IMG/VR virus record: IMGVR_UViG_3300031974_001836
Direction: 5' to 3' (one strand)
Origin: an uncultured virus (IMG/VR IMGVR_UViG_3300031974_001836)
Lineage: Duplodnaviria > Heunggongvirae > Uroviricota > Caudoviricetes
Length of the DNA: 20,000 nt
The notes under the pieces are model-generated. The model did no database searches, was not told the origin of the DNA, and was given only the letters and a program-made list of their open reading frames with translations. Shown one piece after another: positions 3,001-20,000 of the stretch (position 1 is the first letter of the stretch; every line of letters begins with the position of its first letter). The translations under genes and the position numbers were made by a program.

Positions 3001-5437
3001 GACCGTCTGCGTTAACCTGCTCTGCGGCAGATGCACGGACGATTTCTGCATCGATCTGATCTTGTAGGTCTTGTACGTCTGATCCGACTAGACCTTGTAG
3101 AGCAAGGATGTCTGAATCGTTCGAAGTAACCTGAGACTGTAGAGAGTCTGCTGTTGACTGTAGACCTGCCTCAACACCTGAAGCACGTACAACTTCTGCT
3201 AGGATTGCCGCATTTAGATCGGAATCTGCTTCGTTGAAGTCTGCTTCTACTGTATCTAAACGGTTGCTTAGACCCTGTTCAGCTGCCTGTGCACGTGCAA
3301 CTTCTGTGTTGATCGCACCTAGGTTAGAAGAGATGTTTGAGATGTTTGTGTTGATGTCTGTGCGAAGTACTGATTCAGCAGCTTCTGCACGTTGACGTTC
3401 TGTAACAACTGCTTGTGCGTTAGTTTGCTCTGCAGTTGATGCACGAGTAACCTCTGCTGTGATCTGTGCTTGTAGATCGTCAACATCGATTGTAGTGTTA
3501 CTGCTAAGTGCGTTGACCTGTGCTTGTAGGTCTGAGTCACCAGATGCACGTGCAACTTCTTCTGCACGTAGATCGACTTCGTTTTGAGCAGCTAGTGCTT
3601 CAACGTCATCCATCTCACCTTCTAGTACTGTTGTACGTAGAGATAGTGCTTCCTCTGCAGCTTCTGCACGTGCCTTTTCGACATCGTGTAGAGTCTGTGC
3701 AAAGTTAGTTGCTTGTGTCTTAGCAGTTGCGATACGTGCTGTAATTGTGTTACCAGCAGTTCCGTCAACTGAAGCATCACCGATAAGAGCAGTGTCTTGT
3801 GCGTCTGCGTGTGCAATCGCAACTGCTTGGTGTGCGTCTGCTTCTTGGTCAGTGTATGCTTTTGCTTGTGCAAGTACGTCGTCTGTAGAGACGTTTAGAT
3901 CAAGTTCTAGTGCGTCGATCTGAGACTGTAGACCTGCGTCTGCAGTTGAACGAGTTGATGCCTCTGCGTCGATGTTGCCCTGTAGGACAGAATCAGCAGA
4001 TGCACGAGTTGATGCTTCGTTCGAGATTGCAGTAGTGTTAGAAGAAATCAATGCAGACATGTCTGAATCAGCAGACTGGAATGCATCAACGATTTCTGTT
4101 AGTGAGTCTAGTGCTGCAGGATCAGTGTTGTTAGTGATGAAGTCAACTTGTGATTGTAGACCTGCTTCAACACCTTCAGCACGTGCTTTTTCTGTAGCAA
4201 CTTCTGCTGAGTTAGCAACGTCACCAGCAAGACGATCAGCAATTTCTTGATCGATACGAGCACCTAGATCTGAGTCACCTGCGATACGAGCAGCGTTCTC
4301 GATAGCAACATTGCTGTTTGCTTCGACGATTGCTTCTGCTTTTGCAGTTGCGATACGATCTGTGATAGTGTTGCTTGTAGTACCATCAACAGTTGCATCA
4401 CCGATCATTAGAGCATCTTGTGCTTCAGCATGTGCCTTAGCATCTGCTTCTGCTTGAACGATGTCTGCACCTAGATCAGTACGAACCTGTGTATCAGCAA
4501 CAGCACGAGCAACGATCTCATCTGAGATGTTTGATGCGTTCGCAGCTTCTGCCGCAGTTGCACGAGAAACTTCGTCTGCAAGATCTTGTGCGATCGCAGA
4601 TTCTGCGTTAGATGCACGAGTAACTTCTGCGTCGATTTGAGACTGTAGAGAACCAGACTTAGTCTCTTCTGTAGTCAAACGAGCAGATAGAGCATTGTCT
4701 GCCGCAATACGGGCAGTCTCTTCTGCACCGATTAGACCAGCAAGTGAAGACTCTGCAGATTGTGCACGTGAGATCTCTGTAGTAACACGATCATCAATTG
4801 CTTGTTCTGATTGAGTCGCACGAGTGACTTCGTTTGTGATAGCAGTGCTGTTTGCGATGATTGATGCAGATAGGACATCGTCCGCTGATTCAAATGCCGC
4901 AATGATTTCTGCAAACGAGTCTAGTGCTTCTGGACTTGTGTTGTTTAGGATGTTATCGATACGAGTCGATAGTGTAGAATCAGCTGCTTGGTAAGCAGTT
5001 TCGATTGCGTTCTCACGAGCAATTGCACGGGTTTCTTCTGCCGTGATGTTTGCTTGTAGAGTAACGTCTGCCGATGAACGAGTAGATGCTTCTGCGTCGA
5101 TGTTTGATTGTAGTAGAGTCTCTGCCGCAACTGCACGGTTTGTTTCTACTAGAACATCTGCGTCAATCTGCGCAGCGACATCTGTATTAGCACGATCAGC
5201 GGTATAGTATAGGTTAGAACCTTCCGCTAGGTCAGACGTGCTGAACGAAGCGAAGAACTGGTCTGCACCAATCTTCTTTAGTGAGTCAGAACCCACATCG
5301 TAAAGAAGAGTAAAGCAGTCCGCAGGATTTACCATACCTTGAAGGGTTGATTGTCCCTGTACCGCACTTTCGTCAAGTTTGGTATTGATTACCGCCTTGT
5401 CCGCTAGTGCAGGGGATTTAATCTGCCTAAATGCCAT
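2..5437 (-). CDS. Very long segmented coiled-coil virion fibre (fibritin/tail-fibre-like), >=1812 aa, 3' end outside the window
   Basis: Not in the ORF track because there is no stop in the window. ATG at 5437 follows an AGGAGA RBS and begins MAFRQIKSPALADKAVINTKLD. The same frame is still open at the left edge (...GDGAQTTFALDFYTQDANAIVFVGGVIQ). I translated both ends and several internal segments, not every codon. Contains Ala/Glu/Arg heptads (E..RA..AE..L...I), four LDS[LF].EI..A[FL] motifs, four A[VI]NE[LIV]H motifs and a YadA-like neck (KVEGVANGTVATDAVNKGQLD, about 415-490). Confidence 0.88.
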   Translation of the reverse strand, partial: MAFRQIKSPALADKAVINTKLDESAVQGQSTLQGMVNPADCFTLLYDVGSDSLKKIGADQFFASFSTSDLAEGSNLYYTADRANTDVAAQIDADVLVETNRAVAAETLLQSNIDAEASTRSSADVTLQANITAEETRAIARENAIETAYQAADSTLSTRIDNILNNTSPEALDSFAEIIAAFESADDVLSASIIANSTAITNEVTRATQSEQAIDDRVTTEISRAQSAESSLAGLIGAEETARIAADNALSARLTTEETKSGSLQSQIDAEVTRASNAESAIAQDLADEVSRATAAEAANASNISDEIVARAVADTQVRTDLGADIVQAEADAKAHAEAQDALMIGDATVDGTTSNTITDRIATAKAEAIVEANSNVAIENAARIAGDSDLGARIDQEIADRLAGDVANSAEVATEKARAEGVEAGLQSQVDFITNNTDPAALDSLTEIVDAFQSADSDMSALISSNTTAISNEASTRASADSVLQGNIDAEASTRSTADAGLQSQIDALELDLNVSTDDVLAQAKAYTDQEADAHQAVAIAHADAQDTALIGDASVDGTAGNTITARIATAKTQATNFAQTLHDVEKARAEAAEEALSLRTTVLEGEMDDVEALAAQNEVDLRAEEVARASGDSDLQAQVNALSSNTTIDVDDLQAQITAEVTRASTAEQTNAQAVVTERQRAEAAESVLRTDINTNISNISSNLGAINTEVARAQAAEQGLSNRLDTVEADFNEADSDLNAAILAEVVRASGVEAGLQSTADSLQSQVTSNDSDILALQGLVGSDVQDLQDQIDAEIVRASAAEQVNADGLAAEITRATGIESGLRTDVDSNQAQITANDSDILALQVLQATDHADNQAQITAEVNRATAAEGVLQGNIDAEQTRAEGIEAGLRTDVDSVQAQVTANDSDILALQNLQSGDVTDLQNQLDAEIVRATGVETGIRTDLTTLEGRVDFIVSNEDGAALDSLTEIVSAFQNADSDLQGVIDANGGRLTTLESEMDAVELRATDLEAKDVAHTNRLNGLDSDQIVQNTRLSGVEGRATALETKQGSALLHTTATNVSDAINEIHGELDVEAANVDLLQSEMDVAEGRLDGHDSDVSVLQGRASAVEGRATVLEGRATSLETKQGSATLLTTATNLSDAVNELHEELGAEAGDLTALTARVTTAEGEIDTLQSEMDAVEGRATSLESRMTTEEGHVDTLQSQMGVVTLATVANNVTGAVNELHTQADDNTSRIGVLETEMNAIEGRGDSLESRMDAVESKNTLQDGRLTINEGDILALETKLGTGNFDTTAQTITGAVNEVHGELDAVEGRMTAAEARADADSDRLSTEIQARIDGDLAIRADLGADRITDQADYIARDAVVASNAASDATTKANNAEAAAKVYADGIVAGEATLRENADDALDGRIDQEINDRQVADNGLDTRLTVVETEMSATQLASGLATDGTYVTPAGTNYLDASTSLADAAAKLDAAIKSVDNTRNSGVTNLQSQLDAEIARATAAEGANRTLINGEVARATGAESDLGDLITTNAQAIASESSRAQGVEASLQSQIDFVVSNTDSAALDSLTEIVAALQSGDGDLLSLIQTNQTDIATNASGLAQEITDRAAQGTAIRGEFAAADTALQTQIDGRVQKSGDSMSGNLDMSGNKVEGVANGTVATDAVNKGQLDAGLAAQHISQFSTDDLVEGSKKFFSDALARASVSLVDTAGEGKVSYNSSTGVFSIDTAKSLLELADVSDSAYDGKNGYVLRVNNTLDGMSLQDPTQLAFNNAKRQTMAGDGAQTTFALDFYTQDANAIVFVGGVIQ

Positions 5438-6806: not shown

Positions 6807-7163
6807 TTACCTCGTGACCGAAGGGTTGACTTTTATCTTACCTTCTAGTATTCTTTCTATAATGGTATGACCTTCTTCATCAACGAAACTGATCTCAACA
6901 TCATAGACGTATCTACCACGAGTGGATAGAGCATCGGTCTGTAGGTTAGTTAGGGATAATGTGACGACACCTTCCAGTGCTGGAGTAGGTATTACAGCAG
7001 TAAAGTCGATCGACTCTGTACTCCTGTATGTCTTTTTCATTTTGGCAGCTGCTGTATAACCAGTTAGATCTTTTTTAGATCCATCGGGATTCACTAACTC
7101 TAATTGTAGAGCTAGGTCCGCACCCTGATCAATTGTGAAATCTTCGTAAGTTGCCATAGTCAT
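6807..7163 (-). CDS. Conserved T4-like virion structural protein (BppU-N-like beta-sandwich)
   Basis: Pattern IDQGAD...DLTGYTA.A.M.K...G.VTLSLT..QT..L..GRYVYDVEI...RILEG...V.P.VTR. The start is probably the ATG at 7163 or 7157, not the TTG at 7166. Confidence 0.75.
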   Translation of the reverse strand: MTMATYEDFTIDQGADLALQLELVNPDGSKKDLTGYTAAAKMKKTYRSTESIDFTAVIPTPALEGVVTLSLTNLQTDALSTRGRYVYDVEISFVDEEGHTIIERILEGKIKVNPSVTR

Positions 7164-7194
7164 CAAGACCCTAAGTGTATAAACGTTCTGTGAC

Positions 7195-7936: not shown

Positions 7937-8670
7937 ACGATTGGTTTATCCTTGTTAAGACCAGCAGAGAAGTGTCGTAAGATCACTGGCCCTGTGTCTG
8001 GTTTTGTTATTGCCCAATTAAGTGCGTTATAGTAGTTCCACCTTAGATCGTCATCAAAGATTCCAACCTTAAGGTCTTTGTACTTTTCCTCTTTCTCTAC
8101 TAACCACCAGAGTGAGAACTGGTCCCAAGACTTGAGACTATCAGCATATCCCTCTGGCCACCATGTATCATTCATCTGTCTGTATGTCAAATCCCACCAG
8201 TCTTGCATGAACTCACGCACGATTGGTTTGGTCATATCATATAGACAGACACCACCACATAGTGTGAACTTAGAAACACCCTCTGGGGTGTCGAAGTCAC
8301 GTTCTGCGTAGATGTAATCACGATCATCTGTTAACGCAGAAAAAACCATGTCATGGTCTTTCATTTCATCCCAAACTTTAACGATGTCTTCGTGTTCGCA
8401 TTCCATGTCTGCGTCGATGTACATCGTTAGATCATATGGAGATTTTGCCATGCCCCATAATTTGGCACGGTAGTGGTCGTCACAAAAGATAATATCATCT
8501 GCTACATCTCTGCCACGGTCATCTAAGAACTGCTCTTCGGTGACTAGGCAAATCTTACATTCATCTTCCGGTTCGTAAAAGTCTCGGATCGACTCTGCTA
8601 GATTGATTGCATACAGATAAAAATTGCGTTTCTTCGACGCAACGATAACAAAACCTTTACTCTTTTCCAT
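7933..8670 (-). CDS. Putative GT-A fold glycosyltransferase (nucleotide-diphospho-sugar transferase / GT8-like)
   Basis: 245 aa with K...M..SPYD.TMYIDAD (DxD motif), CGGVCLY, WDQ, WN and a C-terminal ILRHF. Overlaps both neighbouring genes. Confidence 0.75.
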   Translation of the reverse strand: MEKSKGFVIVASKKRNFYLYAINLAESIRDFYEPEDECKICLVTEEQFLDDRGRDVADDIIFCDDHYRAKLWGMAKSPYDLTMYIDADMECEHEDIVKVWDEMKDHDMVFSALTDDRDYIYAERDFDTPEGVSKFTLCGGVCLYDMTKPIVREFMQDWWDLTYRQMNDTWWPEGYADSLKSWDQFSLWWLVEKEEKYKDLKVGIFDDDLRWNYYNALNWAITKPDTGPVILRHFSAGLNKDKPIV

Positions 8671-9116
8671 TACTCGGCCTCTAGTTGTTCTTGCAGAATC
8701 ATGATCGAGTACATATCGACTTCGATCTTAGATTTGGCACGACGTAGTTTTGCCTTTAGTTTGCGGTTCTTAGAGTTCTTGATTTCATCCACCTCAAATG
8801 CTTCCAACTTGTAGTTAAATAACTTCTCAAGTTTTCGTGCTTTGTTGTGTTCTTCCTCACGAATTTTATCTTCTTCTGCTTCTGCCTTTTTGCGTTCGAC
8901 TCGATCAGTAGTTTCTTGATCGATTCGTTCTTCACCTAAAGCCTCGACAACCTCATTAAACAGTTCGTTTTCATTGCCATCTTTATCATGCCGACGCAGA
9001 AACATTTGTTGATGCGTTACACGACCAACATCATCTTCAAGTTCTAGGATACAGTTCAGTTCTTTCTTTTCGTCTGTTTCCCAGAACGCATTATCCATCC
9101 ATTGTTTACGACTCAT
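8670..9116 (-). CDS. Hypothetical protein, charged and helical C-terminal half (148 aa)
   Basis: ATG at 9116 has a GGAG RBS 6 nt upstream, so it is preferred over the TTG at 9128. Its stop overlaps the glycosyltransferase start. Confidence 0.75.
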   Translation of the reverse strand: MSRKQWMDNAFWETDEKKELNCILELEDDVGRVTHQQMFLRRHDKDGNENELFNEVVEALGEERIDQETTDRVERKKAEAEEDKIREEEHNKARKLEKLFNYKLEAFEVDEIKNSKNRKLKAKLRRAKSKIEVDMYSIMILQEQLEAE

Positions 9117-9159
9117 TAATATCTCCAAAGAGTTCAGTTCAATTCAACTGTATATATGC

Positions 9160-9196: not shown

Positions 9197-9225
9197 ATTA
9201 TACCATAAGGATTGCTATTATGCAA
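9197..9225 (-). promoter_or_regulatory. Sigma70-like promoter TTGCAT-17 nt-TATAAT with extended -10 (TGG-TATAAT)
   Basis: -35 at 9225-9220, overlapping the last codons of the fibre gene. -10 at 9202-9197. Spacer is 17 nt. Confidence 0.6.
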
Positions 9226-12200
9226 CCCTCACATATAGTGTATAGGTATCAGTAACGTGTGTTAGTGTATCACTGATCGTTGCACCTACGTAGTTACCTA
9301 GGAACGATCTTGAGTAGTTACCCACGAAGTCACGAGCATAGTTGCCCTCAAATCCACGTGTGTAGTTACCAGTGAAATCACCTACGTATGTAGAAACACG
9401 GTCACGTGAGTATGCACCACTGTATGCAGACGTACGGATACGAGCATAAGCAGATACACGGACACGTGCATAGTTACCTACGAAGTCACGAGAGTAAGTA
9501 CCAGTGTACTCACCGACGAATCCACGTGCGTAGTTACCCACGAAGTCACCGACAAAGTCACGAGCATATGCACCCGTGTACTCACCAGTAAATGTACGTG
9601 CGTAGTTACCTACGAAGTCACCAGCAAATTCACGTGTGTACTGACCAGAGAACGTACGTGCATAGTTACCAGTAAAGGTGCGGTTATATGCACCAGTGTA
9701 TTCACCAACGAATCCACGTGAGTAGTTGCCTACGTAATCACCAGCAAACTGACGTGAGTAAGTGCCTGAGTATGCCCCAGTGTATTCACCAACGAATGTG
9801 CGGTTGTAAGCACCAGTGTACTGACCAGAGAATCCACGTGAGTAGTTACCGACGTAGTTTCCACCGAAGTCACGAGTGTAGTTACCTACGTAATCACCAG
9901 CAAAGTTACCGACGAAATCACCGATGAAGTTACCTGCGAAGTTACGTGAGTAGTTACCTGTGAAGTCACGAGCATAGTTACCAGCAAAGTCACCTGCAAA
10001 GTTAGTTACACGATCACGTGTGTATGCAGAAGAACGGTTGCGGACATATGCCGATACACGAGTACGTGCGTAAGCAGAGTAACGTGTGCGTGTTGATGTG
10101 CGAGTGTACTCACCAGTAAAGTTACCAGCAAAGTCACCAGCAAAACCACGTGCATAGTTACCTACGAAGTCACCAGCAAAACCACGAGAGTAGTTACCGA
10201 TGAAGTTACCAGCAAAGTTAGTTACTCGATCTCTAGTGAAGTCACCAACGTAGTTGGTTACACGAGTACGAGCATATGCTGAACTACGGCTTCTGGTTGA
10301 AGTACGTGTGCTGTTACGTGTGTATTCACCAATGAAGTTACCTGCGAAGTTTGTTACACGGTTACGTGTGAAGTCACCAACATAGTTAGTGATACGAGTA
10401 CGTGCATAAGCAGAGTAACGTACACGAGTTGAAGTACGGACACTGTTACGAGTGTAGTTGCCTACAAAGTTACCAGCAAAGTTTGTAACACGGTTACGAG
10501 TAAAGTCACCAACGTAGTTAGTGATGCGAGTACGTGCGTATGCTGAATAACGAGTACGGGTTGAAGTGCGAGTAGATGTACGTGCGTAGTTTCCTACGTA
10601 ATCACCTGTGTAGTAACCAGTACGTACGTAGTTTCCTACGAAGTCACCTGCATAGTAACCAGTACGTGTGTAGTAACCAGTGTTGGTTGACGTACGGGTT
10701 GACGTACGAGCATAGTTGCCTTCATAAGAAGCACCACGAGTACGTGCATAGTTACCTTCATAAGAAGCACCACGAGTACGTGAGTAGTCACCGACATATG
10801 ATGCGGCACGAGTACGTGTGTATGCTACTGTACCTACGTAATCACCAGCAAAGTTACCAACGTAGTTTCCGGTGTAGGATGCACCACGACTACGAGTGTA
10901 TGCTACGTTACGGGTATAGTTGGTTGCACGAGTACGTTGATAGTTTACGGTACCTACGTAATCACCAGCAAAGTTACCTACGTAATCACCAGTATAAGTT
11001 GCGGCACGGTTACGAGTATAGTTTTGTGACCACTCACCAATGAAGTCACCTGTGAAGTCACCTGCGTAGTTTGCAGTACCGACGAAGTTACCAGTATAAC
11101 TTGAAGTTCCTGTCCATGATAGACCATATCTCCATTCCGCACCATATGATACACGGAATGTACCTCTTGAATACCATACACCGTTCTTCTGTACAGAAGT
11201 TGTACCTGAAGTACCAGAAGCAAATCCAACATATACTCCGTCAGCATAGAGCATGATACCTTGCATCTCGTAGTCATATACCCACTGGGTGACGTTTGCA
11301 ACGTATACGTCAGTGTTGGTCTGAGTGCCAGTAGAGGTACGTGTTGACGTAACTGAACGAGAATAGTTGACAATTGAGTTACGAGTCGAGTTAGTAGCAC
11401 CACCACGTGAGTAGTCACCTGTATAGGATGCCGCACGACTACGAGTGTAGTTAGTTGCACGAGTACGAGTAAAGTTGGTCTGACGTGTGTAATCACCTAA
11501 GAAGTTACCAGTGTATCCTACTGTACGAGAGTAGTTACCAGTATAGGTGGCTGCACGTGTACGAGTATAATCTGTTGCACGAGTACGAGTAAAGTTGGTC
11601 TGACGTGTGTAGTTACCGACATACGATGCCGCACGAGTACGTGCATAGTTACCGACATACGATGCCGCACGGTTACGTGCATAGTTACCAACATACGATG
11701 CGGCACGAGTACGTGCATAGTTACCTACGAAGTCACCTGCGTAGTATAAAGTACGAGTATATGCTAGTACACGAGTCGATGTACGTGTTGACGTACGAGT
11801 GTAATCTAGTACACGAGTCGACGTACGTACAGAGGTACGTGCGTAGTTGCCTACAAAGTCACCTGCGTAGTTGCCAGCAAACCCACGTGCGTAGTTACCA
11901 ACAAAATCTCCGGTAAACGTAGTAGCATAGTTGCCTACGAAATCACCAGCAAAGTTAGTTACACGATCACGGGTATAGTTACCAGTAAAGTCACCTGTAT
12001 AGTTTCCTGTGAATCCACGTGCGTAGTTACCTACGAAGTCACCAGTAAAGGTTGTCGCATAGTTACCTACGAAGTCTCCCGCAAAGTTAGTGACACGATC
12101 ACGAGCATAGTTACCAATGAAGTCACCAGCAAAGTTGCCAGCAAACGCACGTGCATAGTTACCAACAAAATCTCCAACGAAATCACGGGCATAGTTGCCA

Positions 12201-13933
12201 ATGAAGTTGCCAGCATAGTTGGTTACACGATCACGAGTATATGCTGAGTAACGAGTACGTGTTGACGTACGAGCATAAGCACTGTAACGAGTACGAGTAG
12301 ATGTACGTGTTGATACACGAGCATAGTTACCGACATAGTTGCCAGCAAACCCACGTGAGTAGTTGCCTACAAAGTTACGTGCATAGTTACCTTGGAAACT
12401 GCGTGAGTAGTTACCAACGAAGTTACCAGCAAAGTTTGTAACACGGTTACGAGTATATGATGATACACGAACACGTGAGTAGATGCCAGCAAAGTTAGTG
12501 ACACGATCACGAGTGTAGTTAGTTACACGAGTGCGGACGTAGTTATCAGAATAAGCAGAAACACGAGTACGAGTGTAAGTGCCTGCGTATGCTGAAACAC
12601 GGTTACGTGAATAAGTACCTGCGTATGCAGAGACACGGTTACGTGAGTAAGTTCCTGCATAGGTACCAGTATAAGACGACACACGAGTACGAGTGTAGTT
12701 AGCAGAGTATGCAGAACTACGTGTACGTGAGTATGTGCCTGAGTAAGATGATACACGACCACGAGTGTACGAAGATGCACGGCTGCGTGAGAATGTACCA
12801 GTAAAGTTTGTTACACGGTTACGAGTGTATGTTGATACACGTGCTCGTGTATAAGTTCCAGCAAAGTATCCAGTGAATGCTGTTAGACGTGTACGTGAGT
12901 AAGTCGACGTACGAGTCCTTGAGTAAACACCTGAGTATGCAGAACCACGAGTACGAGAATAGTTACCCTCGAAACCACGTGTGTAGTTTCCTGTGAAGTC
13001 ACGTGAGTATGTGCCCGTGTAATCACCTACGAAAGTACGTGAGAAAGTATTGACACTATTACGTGTATATGAGGAAACACGATTTCTTGAGTAAGCAGAA
13101 ACACGAGTTGTTACATACGATGATGGGCGTGTGCGAGTATAACTCTGATCCACGATCGTACGACGTGTGTTTGTTGCTGAACCCTTTGCCATCCAAGTAC
13201 CTGCAGATGTAGGTACACCTTGTGTATCAGAACGTAATTGATACGAACCGATAGCACCAGCAGTGGCACGTAGAGTTTTTGCACGTTGACCAAGTGTGTA
13301 CTTGATCTGTGCGTCTGTCATTTCTTTAAATCCGTCGACAGAAGAACCATCATAGACAGTTGCAACTGGACGAACAACATCATAAGTAGTTGCACTTAAT
13401 GATGTCTTTTTCCAAATATGGTAGTTTACAGTAGTGCCGTCTCCATGAGTATCTGTAAATACATTCTCAATATGGATACTCCAATCTAAGCCTGGAGATG
13501 TTTGAGATAGACGGAAGGATCCTTGATATTCTAATCCCGCAACGTCTTTCATGACACGTTCTGTAAGTAGGTCTAAGTCCCCGTCGTTCATTTCATAGAA
13601 ACCAGGGTTAGGCCCCACGTCATAGTATCCTACTGGACGGGCAAAATCTGCACCGGACTCATCTGCTGATCCACCCACTTGCTTAAGAGCAGTAGTTGTT
13701 GTGGTACCAGTGATCTGAGATGCAGGGTGTGTCCCTGCTGGTTCGTTGTAGTACGTATCTACGAAGGAACCAATATTCACACTTCCGGTTAAACTGATAT
13801 TACCGATATCACTAGCAGTGGCCTCTGCTAATGCTTCTCCAACCTTAATGGCAAGATATGCTTCTTCTGCCGGTTGGAATTCCTGTAGGTCACCATCATT
13901 AATGATTTTTAGTGGTATACTAGATGCTGACAC
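9218..13933 (-). CDS. Giant Arg/Tyr/Gly/Thr tetrapeptide-repeat fibre protein with mirror-symmetric arms (1571 aa)
   Basis: GTG start with a GAGAG RBS and a late promoter upstream. Architecture is 264-aa base + 606-aa arm + 75-aa tip + 606-aa arm + 20-aa tail, which sums to 1571. Confidence 0.9.
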   Translation of the reverse strand: MSASSIPLKIINDGDLQEFQPAEEAYLAIKVGEALAEATASDIGNISLTGSVNIGSFVDTYYNEPAGTHPASQITGTTTTTALKQVGGSADESGADFARPVGYYDVGPNPGFYEMNDGDLDLLTERVMKDVAGLEYQGSFRLSQTSPGLDWSIHIENVFTDTHGDGTTVNYHIWKKTSLSATTYDVVRPVATVYDGSSVDGFKEMTDAQIKYTLGQRAKTLRATAGAIGSYQLRSDTQGVPTSAGTWMAKGSATNTRRTIVDQSYTRTRPSSYVTTRVSAYSRNRVSSYTRNSVNTFSRTFVGDYTGTYSRDFTGNYTRGFEGNYSRTRGSAYSGVYSRTRTSTYSRTRLTAFTGYFAGTYTRARVSTYTRNRVTNFTGTFSRSRASSYTRGRVSSYSGTYSRTRSSAYSANYTRTRVSSYTGTYAGTYSRNRVSAYAGTYSRNRVSAYAGTYTRTRVSAYSDNYVRTRVTNYTRDRVTNFAGIYSRVRVSSYTRNRVTNFAGNFVGNYSRSFQGNYARNFVGNYSRGFAGNYVGNYARVSTRTSTRTRYSAYARTSTRTRYSAYTRDRVTNYAGNFIGNYARDFVGDFVGNYARAFAGNFAGDFIGNYARDRVTNFAGDFVGNYATTFTGDFVGNYARGFTGNYTGDFTGNYTRDRVTNFAGDFVGNYATTFTGDFVGNYARGFAGNYAGDFVGNYARTSVRTSTRVLDYTRTSTRTSTRVLAYTRTLYYAGDFVGNYARTRAASYVGNYARNRAASYVGNYARTRAASYVGNYTRQTNFTRTRATDYTRTRAATYTGNYSRTVGYTGNFLGDYTRQTNFTRTRATNYTRSRAASYTGDYSRGGATNSTRNSIVNYSRSVTSTRTSTGTQTNTDVYVANVTQWVYDYEMQGIMLYADGVYVGFASGTSGTTSVQKNGVWYSRGTFRVSYGAEWRYGLSWTGTSSYTGNFVGTANYAGDFTGDFIGEWSQNYTRNRAATYTGDYVGNFAGDYVGTVNYQRTRATNYTRNVAYTRSRGASYTGNYVGNFAGDYVGTVAYTRTRAASYVGDYSRTRGASYEGNYARTRGASYEGNYARTSTRTSTNTGYYTRTGYYAGDFVGNYVRTGYYTGDYVGNYARTSTRTSTRTRYSAYARTRITNYVGDFTRNRVTNFAGNFVGNYTRNSVRTSTRVRYSAYARTRITNYVGDFTRNRVTNFAGNFIGEYTRNSTRTSTRSRSSAYARTRVTNYVGDFTRDRVTNFAGNFIGNYSRGFAGDFVGNYARGFAGDFAGNFTGEYTRTSTRTRYSAYARTRVSAYVRNRSSAYTRDRVTNFAGDFAGNYARDFTGNYSRNFAGNFIGDFVGNFAGDYVGNYTRDFGGNYVGNYSRGFSGQYTGAYNRTFVGEYTGAYSGTYSRQFAGDYVGNYSRGFVGEYTGAYNRTFTGNYARTFSGQYTREFAGDFVGNYARTFTGEYTGAYARDFVGDFVGNYARGFVGEYTGTYSRDFVGNYARVRVSAYARIRTSAYSGAYSRDRVSTYVGDFTGNYTRGFEGNYARDFVGNYSRSFLGNYVGATISDTLTHVTDTYTLYVRVA
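9281..11098 (-). repeat. Returning tetrapeptide-repeat arm (aa 946-1551)
   Basis: 148 tetrads plus 7 dipeptide skips, in mirror order to the outgoing arm. Confidence 0.9.
11324..13141 (-). repeat. Outgoing tetrapeptide-repeat arm (aa 265-870)
   Basis: 148 tetrads of types YxRx, F/YxGx, RxS/T/Ax and SxRx, plus 7 dipeptide skips. Confidence 0.9.
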
Positions 13934-13991: not shown

Positions 13992-14010
13992 CGAAATCAG
14001 ATCGTCACTT

Positions 14011-14490
14011 TTAACTTTTTTGAGGCCAGACCACTTCCTGTACAGAAGTAACACCATCTAGGTGGTCGGTGATATCTCTTAACTGCTGCCGGTAGTTTCT
14101 CCATGACTGCAACTCTTGCTCAGATAGAGGAGCATCAAGTGCTTGAGTCCAGTCACAAGCAGTGAGTAATTGGTCTCGAATCATACGAACATCTCTAACC
14201 AAATCTTCGTGGTTCCATGTCCAATCTAAAGACTCGAAGTTCCACGTTGCATGCTTGTTTGGTGGTAACCCTGTGAATTTAAAGGTTTTTGTTGATGCAT
14301 CAAACCAGTGATAATCCATGAAGTAGGACAAGTCACTGCATCCTGCAGGAAGACTATCCTCATGAACATAGATAATACGTTGAGAACCATCGGGAGTAAA
14401 CCCCTCTGAATCAATCTTCACTTGCGGAAGAGAGATCCTTTCTAGTCTTCCTGTCTGCGTATTAGCATATACAACATAGCATAATTTCAT
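14011..14490 (-). CDS. Phage tail (fibre) assembly chaperone
   Basis: C-terminal R..RD.LL..CDWTQ..D.PL......W..YRQ.LRDIT......V.WP signature. Lies directly after a fibre gene. Confidence 0.85.
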   Translation of the reverse strand: MKLCYVVYANTQTGRLERISLPQVKIDSEGFTPDGSQRIIYVHEDSLPAGCSDLSYFMDYHWFDASTKTFKFTGLPPNKHATWNFESLDWTWNHEDLVRDVRMIRDQLLTACDWTQALDAPLSEQELQSWRNYRQQLRDITDHLDGVTSVQEVVWPQKS

Positions 14491-14491
14491 T

Positions 14492-17400
14492 TTAACTTCT
14501 CGTTACTTGATAATAGGTCATAATAGGTCCACCAGAGTAGTCTGTCTCGATGTAATTTCCACGAGTATATGTGAATCCACCAGTTGTTATTGTAGTATCA
14601 TTTTCACTCTGACCTGATAGTGGTTCAGAAAAATACACTTCAGTCCCATTCCATCGAATCTGTATCGTCACAAGATCTTCACCTTCTGGACTAGGAACAA
14701 GTGATACTCTCCACCAAGTGCCAGAGTTAGACGTATCTGTCGTCTGAGGTGGTGGTTCTGAGTTGACATCTGACGAAGTAGGTGCTACCGAAACCGGAGT
14801 AGTTACCAAATAACTACCTGCTGTGATCCATTGACTACCATTGAACACTTTTATATCATAGGTATATGATGTCCCATTAGGTGGGATCTCATTTACCGTG
14901 AAGTTATTTAGACCACTTGTTACTGTAACATCTGTTAAAATGAGAGCATTATCACGATAAACTCTCAACGACACAGGAGTAGACCCCTCTGTCAAATGTG
15001 TTACTGACAGTTGATGTGTTGTGTCATTTTCCGGATGCACTATTCGATTAGAGGTTGTGGCAAAAATACCCGAATCATTATCATATAACGTGAACTCTTT
15101 CTCCGCAAGAACCTCAACGTTGCTACTACCCATTGGTTCGTTGATACTGGAAGTGTCATTCCCAGTACGTAACTGTGCCCTGAAGGTTTCTCCTTGCCAT
15201 CCCATTTCTCCAACACCGGCTGATACTGTACTGGTTCGTGTATAGTTGCCTATGAACTCACCCGTATAATACGTCTTGGCACCATCGGAGTATGAAGAGG
15301 TTCTAGTTCTTATAAAGTCTCTAGTTGAGGTTCTAGTAGAATTCCTTGTCGATGGTACATAATTCGCATAGTTCCCCAAGTAACTTGGTGTCCTCACATA
15401 ACTGCGTGAATCTGTAAAGTCACGTGTATAGTTACCTGTAAAGTTACCAGTGTACTCTCCAATAAAGGACAACACCCTACTGAAAGCAGTGACTCTTATA
15501 TCGGTTCGAGAACTAACACGTGTGTAGTAAGAGATCGGATATCTACTATATGAGTCTACAATGTTGCGACTATAATTACCTTCGTAGTTACCTTCATACG
15601 ATGGAGATCTGCTATACGTTCCTGTATAGTCACCTATGAAATCTCCAACAAATGATCTCTGATAGTTGCCCTCAAAATTACCACCGAAGTCTCGATTATA
15701 GTTTCCGGTGAATGTACCAGCATAGGAGAACACGGACTCTCGTACACGAGTTGACGTACGACTAGACGTTCGTTGATAGTTAACCGCATGATTCTCTACA
15801 CTACCTTCTATGATGACTTGTCGAGTAGACGCACCTACATAATCTCCCGTATAGATGCGAGTATAAATTCCAGTTCTCTCATAGTTACCCGTATACTGAC
15901 CAGCAAAGTTTCTGTTATAAGTTCCTGTGTATTCCGATACAAATCCTCTTTCATAATTGCCTAAGAAACCTGGTGTGTATGTGCTAACTCGGTTTTTAAG
16001 ATATGTGCTGTATCTGGTAACAACCCTTCCACTTGTCTTGGTTGATATTCGAGAGTTCTCTCCCACGAAATTACGTGTATAATATCCAAATATCTCGACC
16101 ATACCACCCGCATCGGGATCGAATATAAATCGACTAGAAACTTTTGTGACGTTGCCGACAAAGGATCGAGTGTAATTTCCAAAATAACTTCTACTATAGT
16201 CCCCATTATAAGCACGACCATAATTACCAATATAGGTAAGAGTACCTGTATATGAAGAGACTCTATTTCTAGTAGAACTACCTCCCACCGATCTAATCCG
16301 TTGATAGTTACCTATAAAGTCTCGGGTATAATTGCCTACAAAGTTTTGACTAGCAGTTGGTGTGCTTGTACTGGTGTTTTCTGCTATTTTATAATCTTCA
16401 ACAAATGTAGTGGCAGTTTGAAGTGTCCCTCTATGATAATATTTACCTCCTACAGGACCGACAATGGATGATACTCTTGCATCAGCCATACTATCGTATG
16501 CACTACTGGTGTAAACGAGTGTTCCATTGTAGTATAATTGAATAAAGTATTCGTACGTAATATCTCCTCTACCGTCACCAAATCCACCTTCTACGAATCG
16601 AGCAAGTCTCCATACGTATTGAGGATTACCATTAGTGATAGAATATAAGAACGGATCAGACCCACTACCACTGACTCTGGTTCGTTCGTAGGTAGAGGTT
16701 CTAGTTCTCTCGTAGTTGCCTTCGTACGAAGCATTTCCCGTAAAATTACCCACAAACGTACGAGAGTAAGTTGAGGTTCTTGAGTAGTTCCCCTCAAAGT
16801 TGCGAGAGTAATTACCGACAAACGTACGAGAGTATCCCCCTTCATATGACTCGACACGTGTACGTGTATAGTCTACCAGATTTGCGTACGAAGACGTTCT
16901 GGTTCGAGCAAACTCACCAGTATAAGTAATCGTTCTGGTGTAGTTACCTACGAAACCACGTTGATAGTTACCAACAAACGTTCGGGTGCTCTCTGTCCCA
17001 CCCCTAGTTCGAGTGTATGCGGAGATTCGAGTTCGAGCATAAGTTCCGTCGTATGTGGACAGTCTTGCTCTCGTTGAGATTCTTTGATACGGCACTTGTC
17101 GGGTAGATGTTATCGAGTATCGATAACGGCCATAATTTACCTGTGGAACGTAATCCCCTATGAAGTTGCCCAGAAAATTTCCAGTGTAGGTTAGAGTTCG
17201 AGTAAAGTCGAATGGTCTTTGTCTTTGATAAGACGATACTCGTGTTCGACTTGATACTCGATTATACGCAGAAAGTCTCGTGCGTGTAGACGTACGAGTA
17301 AATGTCTTCGACGTTGACAACTCTGGTATTCGAGTTCTAGTGTAATTACCAGCGTAGTTAGACGGACGGTTTCGTTGATACGTCTCGGTATATGTACCTG

Positions 17401-18895
17401 GTCTATAGGTTATCTCAAGTCTACCTTCTGGGTCATTCGGTATAGGATTCCAGTTGTAGTAGATGGTGCCCGTATAAAATCTTGAGTAGTTACCCTCGAA
17501 TGATAACCCGTCTGAGTAATTACGTTCGAATGTACTCGTACGTGTACTATTCCTTGTCGACAGTCGAGTGTATAGACCTTCATAGTCAACTGTTCTTACA
17601 TAGTCACCCGTGTACCCTATTGTCCTTGTGCTTGTTCTAGTATAAGTGCTAAGACGGGTATAGTCTCCGGTAAAGTCTCCGGTATAGTACCCTATTGTAT
17701 TACCAATAAAGTCACGGTTGAATCCTGTTGCAATATCAACGATTGACTGTCTGGTAAACGACCCTGTTCTTTCAATGGTTACATTATATGATGTAGTGTC
17801 ATTATAAGAGACAAACGTTGCTGTATGCGCAGACCCCGTAAATGTAGAAAAGTTTGCAGTAAAGTCTTTCTGTGCTACACCGTCTGACCCTGAGAGTCTG
17901 AATAATTTAACGTGATAATTGTTAGGTTCGTTAGTCGTTGCTATTAGACTAATCGATTGTCCTTCAATTATATTATCGACACTAGAGAATTGCAATGCTC
18001 CCTGTAGACTAGATTCCTCTTCGTTTTGTTGACTAGTTCCTGAAGAAGACCCTTCTAGTTTGGCCGCAAACAATGCGTTCAGGTTCCTGAAGTTTTGATA
18101 TATTTCTTGTAGACCTGACTCATCATAGTTAATTAAGATAGAGTCGTAATACCGAACCTGTGTAGTGCTGAACCCCAGTCCGTACAGATTAGTTGTAATT
18201 TGGTTGTCTTGAAAAGCACCACTAATAGCACCGGATAAAGACCATTCAATATTAATATAGCATCCAGCACTATGATTTAAAAACGGGTTGCCTAAGACGG
18301 TCCAGTTCTGACTTGGTGGTAGATAGGTTTCAATATTAAAAATATTATTGGTGATAAGTGCTCTGGAATCAAAAGCAATTCTACCCTGTGATGTCTTTAT
18401 CTGTAGACCATATTCATCGTCGTTTAACGCAGATGAATTTTCTATAATCTCTGCTGTCTCACGGACAATAAAGTAGTCCATGTCCACATCCCAATCAGCA
18501 GTCACATAGGTCTGGTTTAAATATCCACCATTGGTAAGTCCACGACCTTTGAATCTGTAGGTATTGCTTAGTGCATCACTTGCCGTTCGTGCTAGGAAAA
18601 ACACTTCAGGGTTTGAGATAGTAACGTCTTGCGTAGTCCCATTAAAATTGGTAATTGCGTCGGGTACAACTATTGGACCAAATCCGGTTCCAGTTAAATC
18701 TGGATTGTATCCGGTTGCGGTTGGACGTTTTACAAAGACAAAGTCTTCTTTGGTGAGTTCGGAATCTAAGGTAAACGAATGCCCACGACCTGCTGCTACA
18801 ACTCTGTAGTTAAGAAGATCGAGAGTAGTATCGGCAATAATGAAATTGTTACCGTTGCCGTCATTGCCTTGTACCTTTAGACCGTAGGTCATCAT
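14492..18895 (-). CDS. Second tetrapeptide-repeat fibre protein (1467 aa)
   Basis: N-terminal YGL.[VI]...G...[FA]D[ST] motif occurs twice. A Calx-beta-like domain is split by an approximately 860-aa repeat insertion that has a central domain. An Ig/FN3-like domain, a P/S/T linker and a C-terminal domain follow. ATGA overlap with the upstream stop. Confidence 0.88.
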   Translation of the reverse strand: MMTYGLKVQGNDGNGNNFIIADTTLDLLNYRVVAAGRGHSFTLDSELTKEDFVFVKRPTATGYNPDLTGTGFGPIVVPDAITNFNGTTQDVTISNPEVFFLARTASDALSNTYRFKGRGLTNGGYLNQTYVTADWDVDMDYFIVRETAEIIENSSALNDDEYGLQIKTSQGRIAFDSRALITNNIFNIETYLPPSQNWTVLGNPFLNHSAGCYINIEWSLSGAISGAFQDNQITTNLYGLGFSTTQVRYYDSILINYDESGLQEIYQNFRNLNALFAAKLEGSSSGTSQQNEEESSLQGALQFSSVDNIIEGQSISLIATTNEPNNYHVKLFRLSGSDGVAQKDFTANFSTFTGSAHTATFVSYNDTTSYNVTIERTGSFTRQSIVDIATGFNRDFIGNTIGYYTGDFTGDYTRLSTYTRTSTRTIGYTGDYVRTVDYEGLYTRLSTRNSTRTSTFERNYSDGLSFEGNYSRFYTGTIYYNWNPIPNDPEGRLEITYRPGTYTETYQRNRPSNYAGNYTRTRIPELSTSKTFTRTSTRTRLSAYNRVSSRTRVSSYQRQRPFDFTRTLTYTGNFLGNFIGDYVPQVNYGRYRYSITSTRQVPYQRISTRARLSTYDGTYARTRISAYTRTRGGTESTRTFVGNYQRGFVGNYTRTITYTGEFARTRTSSYANLVDYTRTRVESYEGGYSRTFVGNYSRNFEGNYSRTSTYSRTFVGNFTGNASYEGNYERTRTSTYERTRVSGSGSDPFLYSITNGNPQYVWRLARFVEGGFGDGRGDITYEYFIQLYYNGTLVYTSSAYDSMADARVSSIVGPVGGKYYHRGTLQTATTFVEDYKIAENTSTSTPTASQNFVGNYTRDFIGNYQRIRSVGGSSTRNRVSSYTGTLTYIGNYGRAYNGDYSRSYFGNYTRSFVGNVTKVSSRFIFDPDAGGMVEIFGYYTRNFVGENSRISTKTSGRVVTRYSTYLKNRVSTYTPGFLGNYERGFVSEYTGTYNRNFAGQYTGNYERTGIYTRIYTGDYVGASTRQVIIEGSVENHAVNYQRTSSRTSTRVRESVFSYAGTFTGNYNRDFGGNFEGNYQRSFVGDFIGDYTGTYSRSPSYEGNYEGNYSRNIVDSYSRYPISYYTRVSSRTDIRVTAFSRVLSFIGEYTGNFTGNYTRDFTDSRSYVRTPSYLGNYANYVPSTRNSTRTSTRDFIRTRTSSYSDGAKTYYTGEFIGNYTRTSTVSAGVGEMGWQGETFRAQLRTGNDTSSINEPMGSSNVEVLAEKEFTLYDNDSGIFATTSNRIVHPENDTTHQLSVTHLTEGSTPVSLRVYRDNALILTDVTVTSGLNNFTVNEIPPNGTSYTYDIKVFNGSQWITAGSYLVTTPVSVAPTSSDVNSEPPPQTTDTSNSGTWWRVSLVPSPEGEDLVTIQIRWNGTEVYFSEPLSGQSENDTTITTGGFTYTRGNYIETDYSGGPIMTYYQVTRS

Positions 18896-19296
18896 CCAAC
18901 CCTTATCGCAATAACGTCTATGGTTTTATATTCCCATAGTTCTTGTGGAAGGGGAGTGTGTAAATATCTAACATCTTGTAAAGACACCTGAATTCTATCA
19001 TTAGTCCAACCACTAGAAATACCTGTAGGAGAATCTTTACTGATTCTGGTAATATAAATTCGTGTGTAGTAATTTAGATTGGCAGGTTTTCTCACAAGAC
19101 TGACAATAATATTATTGGTGTCAGATGCGTCCGGACATTCAAGTAGGGTGGAGTCACTCGGCCAGGCAAGAGAAAATGTTTCTCTTAGTTGGATATTACT
19201 GGTTCTTATATTATCAGAGAATACGACTTCAGGTTGAACAAATGTACCATCCTCTTGCTCAATTTTAGGGCCGTATAGTTGGATACCATAACTCAT
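18892..19296 (-). CDS. Small tail-associated protein (MSYGIQ...VFSD N-terminus)
   Basis: 134 aa. Its N-terminus resembles the YGL motifs of the downstream 1467-aa protein, and the two genes are translationally coupled. Confidence 0.7.
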   Translation of the reverse strand: MSYGIQLYGPKIEQEDGTFVQPEVVFSDNIRTSNIQLRETFSLAWPSDSTLLECPDASDTNNIIVSLVRKPANLNYYTRIYITRISKDSPTGISSGWTNDRIQVSLQDVRYLHTPLPQELWEYKTIDVIAIRVG

Positions 19297-19304
19297 GGTG
19301 CCCC

Positions 19305-19709
19305 CTATGGTTTAGGTGGCCAAACAACTGACTCCAAATCAGAATAGTCTTGTGTGATATCACGAAGTGTTTGTCTGTACACGCTCCATTCTTCTCGTTG
19401 ACCGTCACTCAGACCATTGTCATCTAACCTAGTCCAGTCACATTCCTGAAGTTTAGTATTACGTGCCTGACGCAATTCTTCTATTTCGATCTGTGCGATA
19501 ACATCATCTGGATAAGGTGCTACAATTTGTGCTACAATATCATCAGATTCAATGTATTTGTTCAGAACAATTGCTCGTGTAGCATCATACTCTTCTTGCC
19601 ACGGAATAAAAAGTTTCCATGCTTCTGGTGATGGTACCACATTATTGGGAAAGGATTGAGGAGAACCCACTGGAATACCGTTATGTACTTTTATAAACTG
19701 TATGCTCAT
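19305..19709 (-). CDS. Phage tail (fibre) assembly chaperone, paralogue of 14011..14490
   Basis: Contains LRQARNTKLQECDWTRLDD..LS..QREEWSVYRQTLRDITQ.......VVWPPKP. AGGA RBS. Confidence 0.85.
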   Translation of the reverse strand: MSIQFIKVHNGIPVGSPQSFPNNVVPSPEAWKLFIPWQEEYDATRAIVLNKYIESDDIVAQIVAPYPDDVIAQIEIEELRQARNTKLQECDWTRLDDNGLSDGQREEWSVYRQTLRDITQDYSDLESVVWPPKP

Positions 19710-19721
19710 TTTAATTTCCTA

Positions 19722-20000
19722 TTAGGGTTCTATGCCACTGCCATTAAGATTGATGTCAAAAGTAACTGCGTCCCCGTTGGCATCCTCAAATCGACCAGTG
19801 TCCGGATTCCAAGAGAAAACACTATCATACAAAGTAGCAGTAGTCTCACCAGCAACCGACGCAACAGTATTGACAAACTCATTATATATAGCAGTTGCAT
19901 CAAGAGCACTCGTTCCACCATCGTCAGAACCACTAACGACCTGATTCGCAGACGATGTTGGATCATAAGCAGCTGCCGTTGAATCTGTTGTGCTTGCTAT
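19722..20000 (-). CDS. C-terminal 92 aa of an upstream, probably tail/virion, protein (5' end outside the window)
   Basis: Open frame from the window edge, IASTTDSTAAAYDPTSS...LYDSVFSWNPDTGRFEDANGDAVTFDINLNGSGIEP, ending at TAA 19724-19722. Absent from the ORF track. Confidence 0.75.
   Translation of the reverse strand: MASTTDSTAAAYDPTSSANQVVSGSDDGGTSALDATAIYNEFVNTVASVAGETTATLYDSVFSWNPDTGRFEDANGDAVTFDINLNGSGIEP

Follow-up and report, generated by a model that had tools for sequence, protein, structure and literature searches.

Two kinds of described virus attachment fibre offer comparisons for the protein considered here. The needle domain of gp37, the tip protein of the T4 long tail fibre, is said to have been described by Bartual et al. 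in 2010; it takes roughly a hundred residues per chain, its core contains iron bound by His-x-His motifs, and we know of no period-4 pairing code in gp37. Triple beta-helix and triple beta-spiral shafts, such as those of T4 gp12 and gp5 and of adenovirus and reovirus fibres, are built from three chains that run parallel from base to tip. A passage of PMC9608196 mentions both of these shaft types, and a passage of PMC9659904 describes how each chain of the gp37 needle runs out to a head domain and back, giving six antiparallel strands in the trimer. Here we analyse a 20,000-nucleotide stretch of DNA (the window) from an uncultured virus of the Caudoviricetes (IMG/VR record IMGVR_UViG_3300031974_001836), and in particular the gene at positions 14492-18895 of its minus strand (stop codon 14492-14494), defined from the list of open reading frames (ORFs) and its translation. 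The 1467-residue product, P0001, is probably a fold-back tail-fibre protein in which each chain would form a very long antiparallel beta ribbon, and its virus would be an uncultured relative of Phage C48C1.

P0001 resembles gp37 in being a tail-fibre protein with a predicted out-and-back chain, a presumed receptor-binding part at the turn and putative separate chaperones, and in its T4-like phage context. Antiparallel halves of the gp37 type are indicated in P0001 by sequence proxies only, namely mirror complementarity, mirrored insertions and deletions (indels) and a knob at the midpoint. The arms are several-fold to ten-fold longer than the gp37 needle of about 100 residues, reaching 380 residues in P0001, 610 in its neighbour P0002 and about 1000 in the C48C1 protein. 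They also contain no HxH motif, with 1 His among the 760 arm residues of P0001 and none among the 1220 of P0002. No homology of P0001 or P0002 to gp37 was seen in searches of PDB, Pfam, PHROG and NCBIfam, in which gp37 was not compared by profile. The resemblance to triple-beta shafts lies in a long, thin, repeat-built beta shaft with a distal knob, as in virus attachment fibres; however, those shafts have a distal C-terminus and neither need nor are known to show mirror complementarity within a chain, whereas the two halves of P0001 are reverse-complementary and the C-terminus would be back at the base. No description of such a tetrapeptide repeat or of a long fold-back fibre was found in the literature, subscription journals being outside the scope of that search.

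P0001 is laid out as two repeat arms around a central knob, with domains at both ends (all features below are on the minus strand). A conserved N-terminal domain (aa 1-366; 17798-18895), presumed to be the attachment end and the base of the hairpin, is followed by an N arm of 379 aa (aa 367-745; 16661-17797), whose tetrapeptide repeats with period-4 aromatics lead outward to a central knob of about 105 aa (aa 746-849; 16349-16660), the putative turn. A C arm of 381 aa (aa 850-1230; 15206-16348), delimited on the same basis, pairs with the N arm and runs back to C-terminal domains (aa 1231-1467; 14495-15205) that would sit at the base beside the N-terminal domain. In the arms, aromatic residues recur at lag 4 (65 pairs, versus 6-8 at lags 1-3), with further peaks at lags 8 and 12, and the repeat units are of the types [FY]xG[ND], YxRx and RxS/Tx. 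Among 125 proteins found at E<=1e-3, 36 including P0001 carry both its N- and C-terminal domains. Hidden Markov models (HMMs) of aa 151-366, with many columns at least 90% conserved, and of aa 1229-1340 each match 36/36 of these family members. The knob HMM matches 6/36 only, with no further gain in 5 rounds, and the knob is thus variable. Conserved ends and a variable centre are as expected if the knob is a distal, receptor-facing tip. Neither P0001 nor P0002 matches any family in Pfam, PHROGs or NCBIfam, or any chain at E<=1 in a phmmer search of all PDB chains.

The knob HMM also matches P0001 aa 1401-1466 (14498-14695), at the extreme C-terminus, which points to a second knob-like domain at the base of P0001. 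This knob copy is present only in P0001 and its three closest relatives (P0003, P0004 and P0005); if the chain folds back, P0001 would have one knob at the tip and one at the base.

The pairing rule was derived from P0002 (1571 aa; 9218-13933), a reference hairpin protein encoded next to P0001, whose arms (aa 263-872, 11318-13147, and aa 943-1552, 9278-11107) flank a knob at aa 873-942. These arms align in a single gapless antiparallel register of 610 pairs (657.7 bits). At i+j=1813 (0-based), 176 of the 664 pairs are G:R, F:S or Y:R, versus 104 in the next-best register. Expected counts were taken from registers shifted by whole repeat units, so that the period was kept. Against these counts, R:Y (95 observed, 43.6 expected), G:R (53 versus 27.1), F:S (25 versus 9.1), F:T (20 versus 6.2) and G:S (20 versus 7.3) are enriched. 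Conversely, R:R (20.8 expected), S:Y (14.6), R:S (10.9), Y:Y (5.9) and G:G (4.4) are never observed, and F:Y is likewise absent. Thus, RxS/T units face [FY]xG[ND] units only, and YxRx units mostly face one another. At unit positions 1 and 3, [FY]xG[ND] opposite RxS/T or SxR yields F:S/T and G:R pairs, and YxRx opposite YxRx yields Y:R and R:Y pairs; the face formed by positions 2 and 4 holds small and polar pairs (V:V, A:A, T:V, N:N, D:N). The log-odds of 599 P0002 pairs make up the pairing matrix used below, and only P0002 served for training.

In its logic only, this arrangement recalls RNA stem-loops: antiparallel complementary arms written in a small alphabet, a loop, one-sided bulges and compensating changes that keep the register. 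Unlike RNA stem-loops, it concerns a protein in which four-residue units would pair by steric and chemical fit (Arg with Tyr or Gly, Phe with Ser or Thr), and the code is degenerate, many alternative local pairings scoring equally well. P0001 has the stalk of P0002 in common with it, but not its scaffold. The N-terminal domains of the two proteins are unrelated by sequence comparison (best E 1.5), which bears out the earlier suggestion of a different scaffold following the same rule. Their knobs are marginally similar (E 0.007), and P0001 has an additional C-terminal region of about 240 aa without counterpart in P0002.

A first-pass annotation of this DNA had listed tetrad pairs between the two arms of P0001 and three inserts on single arms, and all of them are found in place in the translation of 14492-18895. 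The pairs closest to the knob form an inner segment of 36 residues, in which aa 708-743 of the N arm (16667-16774) face aa 852-887 of the C arm (16235-16342) without gap at i+j=1595. Outward from the knob, they read RVSG/FVGN, YERT/YTRD, RTST/FIGN, YERT/YQRI and YEGN/RSVG, then, after a skip (AS/GS), FTGN/STRN, FVGN/RVSS and YSRT/YTGT, followed by a second skip (ST/LT). Similarly, an outer segment of 46 residues pairs aa 536-581 (17153-17290) with aa 1044-1089 (15629-15766), again without gap, at i+j=1625; it comprises STRT/FIGD, RLSA/FVGD, SSRT/FEGN, RVSS/FGGN, a skip (LT/FS), FLGN/STRV and FIGD/SSRT. Both the inner and the outer paired segments are real. A DNA palindrome as the cause of the symmetry was ruled out, an inverted-repeat search having given only one 18-nt pair; as the DNA carries no matching inverted repeat, the mirror symmetry exists at the protein level only.

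The inserts on single arms had been read as three bulges. All three are present: 22 aa in the N arm (aa 479-500; 17396-17461), and 14 aa (aa 924-937; 16085-16126) and 11 aa (aa 1027-1037; 15785-15817) in the C arm. The 22 aa of the N arm nearly balance the 14 + 11 aa of the C arm, and the arms measure 379 and 381 aa. Only some of the inserts, however, coincide with unpaired stretches of a global alignment of the arms: aa 472-493 and 497-504 are unpaired around the first, the second is partly unpaired, and the third falls in an unpaired stretch at aa 1029-1057.

We scored the pairing of the two arms against shuffles of the C arm in words starting at each F or Y, a procedure that keeps the repeat, because in-phase period-4 sequences score well in any case. 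With the P0002 matrix, local alignment of the N arm with the C arm gives 62.7, versus 45.0+-6.6 for the shuffles, none of 60 reaching the observed value, and 33.3 for the parallel control. Knob-anchored or global alignment under three gap settings gives z values of 2.8-5.9, with 0/60 shuffles reaching the score in five tests and 1/60 in the sixth. The flipped C arm scores below the antiparallel arrangement in every anchored or global setting. Comparison with shuffled sequence under the matrix of the first protein was the check set beforehand for this claim, and the score of P0001 does beat the shuffles.

Stronger evidence, independent of the pairing matrix, comes from sequence comparisons of P0001 with its relatives, and consists of matched indels and the position of the knob. 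P0004 is 85% identical to P0001 in the arm region, and the sole arm indels of at least 2 aa between them are two insertions of 16 aa each, one at aa 708 and one at aa 910. Both 16-aa insertions of P0004 are tandem duplications of four units that can slide to exact mirror sites, and the extra residues adjoin the inner paired segment in both arms. Similarly, P0005 carries two insertions of 36 aa relative to P0001, one at aa 534 and the other at aa 1091, as well as one 2-aa indel; 534+1091=1625 is the register of the adjoining outer paired segment. We surveyed indels of at least 10 aa in 60 pairs of relatives that are 50-97% identical in the arm region. No such indel occurs in 23 of the 60 pairs. 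Another 20 (20 of the 37 with large indels) show a single one in each arm, the two being identical in length and sign and located at mirrored positions; these correspond to six separate events (16/16, 36/36, 52/52, 22/22, 38/38 and 18/18 aa). Three of the remaining 17 pairs are balanced in sum (P0004/P0005, 20/20; P0010/P0015, 52/48; P0018/P0019, 46/52). The arm region spans 561-1033 aa across relatives, and the knob was located in it by a crude marker, the 60-aa window poorest in Arg. In 34/35 relatives the mean distance of this window from the midpoint of the arm region is 29 aa, where random placement would give 416 aa (P0009 was left out of this figure, its Arg-poorest marker having fallen elsewhere). 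In the P0001 family, matched indels thus keep the two arms equal and a knob free of repeats sits at the midpoint, with the exceptions given below.

The suggestion that the code defines a family rather than a single protein agrees with what is found in other members. With the P0002 matrix and phase-preserving shuffling of their own sequences, 33 of the 35 P0001 relatives score above the shuffles (median z 2.8; 15/35 above 3), and the flipped C arm scores lower in all of them but P0009, whose arms were mis-cut. Many shorter proteins among 213 of at least 400 aa carry gapless mirror segments of 100-250 pairs, which extend from about aa 260-300 to the extreme C-terminus. We tested 22 further distinct proteins (the 24 best-scoring minus P0002 and one identical copy): their ungapped mirror segments comprise 70-250 pairs at z 9-40 (15 shuffles each), and the parallel controls are lower in all except P0115. 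The family is rare in public data, as an exhaustive profile-free search of 1.84 billion representatives returned 130 clusters at E<=1e-3, of which 64 reach E<=1e-10. The members that we saw come from marine metagenomes, on contigs of up to 157 kb, and all of them are unnamed or annotated as 'hypothetical protein'.

The phage collection contains a single relative, Phage C48C1 (OQ984149.1, 156 kb, placed by GenBank in the T4-like family Kyanoviridae). Its gene order matches that of the window around a 3347-aa 'hypothetical protein', which is the syntenic ortholog of P0002. Pairing in this protein starts with a gapless block of 416 pairs and continues in blocks of 24-185 pairs, for a total of 667 bits. 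The skips between blocks measure 269, 46, 177, 182, 186 and 125 aa in the C arm only and 36, 12 and 10 aa in the N arm; the long ones match non-repeat, globular-looking sequence, and pairing resumes after each of them. The proposal that the bulges of P0001 are side knobs thus gains support by analogy only, through these globular one-arm inserts of 125-269 aa. The C48C1 protein (L005; OQ984149.1, 7903-17946) also contains an exact tandem duplication of about 73 aa (at about aa 2010-2155), which straddles the boundary between a globular insert and the repeat block that follows it, and the hairpin alignment skips 46 aa there. This duplication could be real or an assembly artefact.

Several observations weigh against pairing of the arms within a folded-back chain, and the sequence signal in P0001 itself is modest and weaker than in P0002. 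Its C arm scores 62.5 against its own reverse, which is as high as the arm-to-arm local score. Local alignment with the phase-corrected matrix alone gives 34.4, versus 32.7+-5.5 for shuffles, 36 of 100 reaching the observed value; this lack of signal stems from the near-zero scores that the matrix gives to off-phase pairs. The top ungapped segment lies off the nest (i+j=1768; 1/100 shuffles reach it), and the best nested segment ranks only 8th. The repeats of P0001 are degenerate, and what exceeds chance is the collinear chain of pairings only, no single segment doing so. Global alignment leaves 20 unpaired stretches whose placement varies with the gap settings, and the first-pass caveat that some stretches align poorly was justified, the pairing of the middle and of the outermost parts being indeed uncertain in its details. 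Among relatives, only 15/35 exceed z 3, P0009, P0020, P0023 and P0034 are near zero, and the family tests are not fully independent since the relatives share ancestry. In the indel survey, 14 of the remaining 17 pairs are fragmented and unbalanced: the losses of P0008 relative to P0012 and P0014 amount to 37 aa for the N half against 78-97 aa for the C half, and comparisons of the P0016 group with the P0022 group are fragmented, at 47-60 versus 0-28 aa. Finally, the arm lengths correlate at r -0.08 with P0009 included (0.78 without it).

Some of these points can be turned into an explanation in which the arms make no contact at all. The mirror pattern would then be a product of block-wise composition and of degenerate repeats of period 4, and the arms would be kept at equal length for some other reason, such as two shafts of set length around a middle domain. 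Such an explanation draws on the single segments of P0001, which pair about equally well off the nest, on the pairing of the C arm with its own reverse, on the silent phase-corrected matrix and on the 4/35 relatives near zero. It has to accommodate, however, six separate indel events of identical length at mirrored positions, including +36 aa exactly at i+j=1625. It also has to accommodate the gapless 610-pair register of P0002 without a single R:R, Y:Y, S:Y or R:S pair where 6-21 of each are expected, the resumption of pairing after each globular insert in C48C1, and the lower score of the flipped C arm in every protein but the mis-cut P0009. We consider it very improbable, and it is already disfavoured by these data.

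Structure prediction, which had been proposed as a check, was informative for the knob but not for the arms. AlphaFold2 was run on aa 367-1230 with 35 sequences. In this long model the knob has a predicted local distance difference test (pLDDT) score of 81-93, and folded alone it forms a small beta domain with one short helix (pLDDT 84). The arms are not confident (mean pLDDT 36.2; predicted TM-score 0.25; 748 of 864 residues below 50), and this joins the points listed above. Long strands nevertheless appear symmetrically about the knob (construct positions 287-352 and 508-583; pLDDT 30-60), and the positions of these flanking strands sum to the same constant as the sequence register. A VIA wide fold search with the long model gave a weak best match (Z 5.1) to the long beta-hairpins of gasdermin pores. 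For the knob, nothing convincing was found with Foldseek in PDB (best E 0.52) or with VIA wide (best Z 3.6); the best BFVD match (E 0.02, TMq 0.38), to a Rhizobium phage protein labelled 'Gp38 domain-containing protein', is a lead at most.

The sequence alone cannot separate pairing within a chain from pairing between chains, which also counts against the fold-back reading. In a possible head-to-tail arrangement of two or three extended chains, the N arm of each would pair with the C arm of a neighbour, and the knobs would meet in the middle of the rod. Such a rod would be about twice as long and would carry both kinds of end domain at each end. Intermolecular pairing would yield the same mirror complementarity and the same matched indels, just as a palindromic RNA can form either a hairpin or a duplex, and AlphaFold2 did not commit to an intramolecular hairpin. 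We regard this arrangement as unlikely, however. Tail fibres attach by one end, and a symmetric rod accounts less well than a fibre with base and tip for the conserved end domains and the variable knob. The AlphaFold2 strands are symmetric about the knob. In the sole precedent of antiparallel strands in a tail fibre, T4 gp37, each chain folds back on itself, as far as the relevant passage of PMC9659904 goes.

In the preferred fold-back arrangement, the conserved N-terminal domain would anchor the chain, which would run outward as an extended strand built of four-residue units, some 380 residues long, turn in the variable knob of about 105 residues and come back alongside itself for another 380 or so. 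By folding back, the chain would return its conserved C-terminal domains to the base and leave the knob as the distal tip, presumably facing the receptor. Following the P0002 rule, each cell of the ribbon would place an Arg beside an aromatic ring or a Gly gap, and the face of positions 1 and 3 may form a ladder of cation-pi contacts and large-small packing, in which Arg would lie against Tyr or, next to Phe, over Gly. Stretches present on one arm only would loop out sideways, at places where relatives carry whole globular domains. An extended strand rises 3.3-3.4 A per residue, and at that spacing P0001 would measure roughly 110-125 nm and P0002 about 200 nm. We infer both the fold and the chain number of the P0001 fibre. 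By analogy with T4 gp37, three chains probably bundle into a six-stranded shaft, helped by a Tfa-type chaperone. A tail-fibre assembly chaperone gene lies directly downstream of P0001 (14011-14490; PF16778, E 5.7e-16, above the cut-off; phrog_4912, tail fiber assembly, 2e-16), as in Tfa-type chaperone-dependent fibres, and its product is a putative partner.

The arms could also pair and the hairpin then wind into a thicker solenoid or sheet, in which case the fibre would be much shorter than 100-200 nm. The 3347-aa relative, if fully extended, would give an implausibly long ribbon of about 330 nm by the same reckoning. However, a two-stranded ribbon requires just such a gapless one-to-one register as is seen over 416-610 residues, and a solenoid would require less, so that we hold this shape to be distinctly unlikely and keep the extended two-stranded ribbon as the favoured form.

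The window encodes a phage tail-fibre module made up of all its long ORFs, every one of them on the minus strand. The first in gene order is the 3' end of a gene running off the window (19722-20000), followed by a tail-fibre assembly chaperone gene (19305-19709; PF16778, E 2.3e-16), a 134-aa ORF, and P0001 with its own downstream chaperone gene. As the chaperone gene at 19305-19709 trails a gene that leaves the window, at least one further chaperone-served fibre gene would lie upstream. P0002 comes next in order, and then three small or medium ORFs ahead of a gene for an LtfC-like protein (6807-7166; phrog_1084, 5.9e-25), two more ORFs, and a gene for a coiled-coil protein (2-5437; more than 1812 aa), which continues beyond the edge of the window. 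The latter is a third very long fibre-like protein, with heptad-like repeats rich in Ala, Glu, Gln and Thr; it has a sub-threshold match to YadA_stalk (E 3.3e-5, 24.6 bits, cut-off 28.4) and matches phrog_13589 at 1.1e-9.

Directly downstream of P0002, a 152-aa Lys/Glu-rich ORF (8670-9128) occupies the slot that the Tfa-type chaperone gene has behind P0001. It belongs to no family in Pfam, PHROGs or NCBIfam, and C48C1 has a 153-aa ORF at the matching position. Two further ORFs just downstream of P0002 (7933-8670 and 7229-7936) are found in the same order beside the C48C1 giant protein, and neither gave a match in Pfam or NCBIfam. The 245-aa ORF of this pair shows a nucleotide-diphospho-sugar transferase likeness in ESM Atlas (0.97), with PF03407 on 30-51% of the members of two clusters. 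The 235-aa ORF gave weak leads only, to a 2OG-Fe(II) oxygenase (0.87) and an Asp/Asn beta-hydroxylase (0.86). These transferase-like and hydroxylase-like ORFs are candidates that might modify the fibre arms.

A megablast of window positions 14000-20000 against the phage collection gave no match. The nearest virus record, a 19.4-kb fragment (G001), has 62% of the sampled words of the window in common with it. Its bases 6-893 (L001-L004) begin within a 319-aa open frame with similar repeats, about 50% identical to parts of the C arm of P0001.

We see about an even chance that proteins such as P0001 and P0002 represent a new class of fibrous fold, in which a small code of amino acids, akin to base pairing, zips a single chain to itself along hundreds of residues. 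If so, stalk length would depend simply on the matched units that the two arms gain, and one arm could bear whole domains as side knobs. The rule could in principle be readable from sequence and reusable for designed protein rods of chosen length. If the ribbon is real, the evolution of the protein would resemble that of an RNA stem, changes in one segment being compensated in another far away in the chain, and protein design would gain a simple pairing rule for long rigid or semi-rigid rods. Phages would then be making attachment fibres of 100-300 nm by a principle absent from solved fibres, that is, with a new type of shaft. In many unannotated proteins of marine phages, the distal part that recognises the host would also become locatable by sequence alone, as the knob at the midpoint of the arms.

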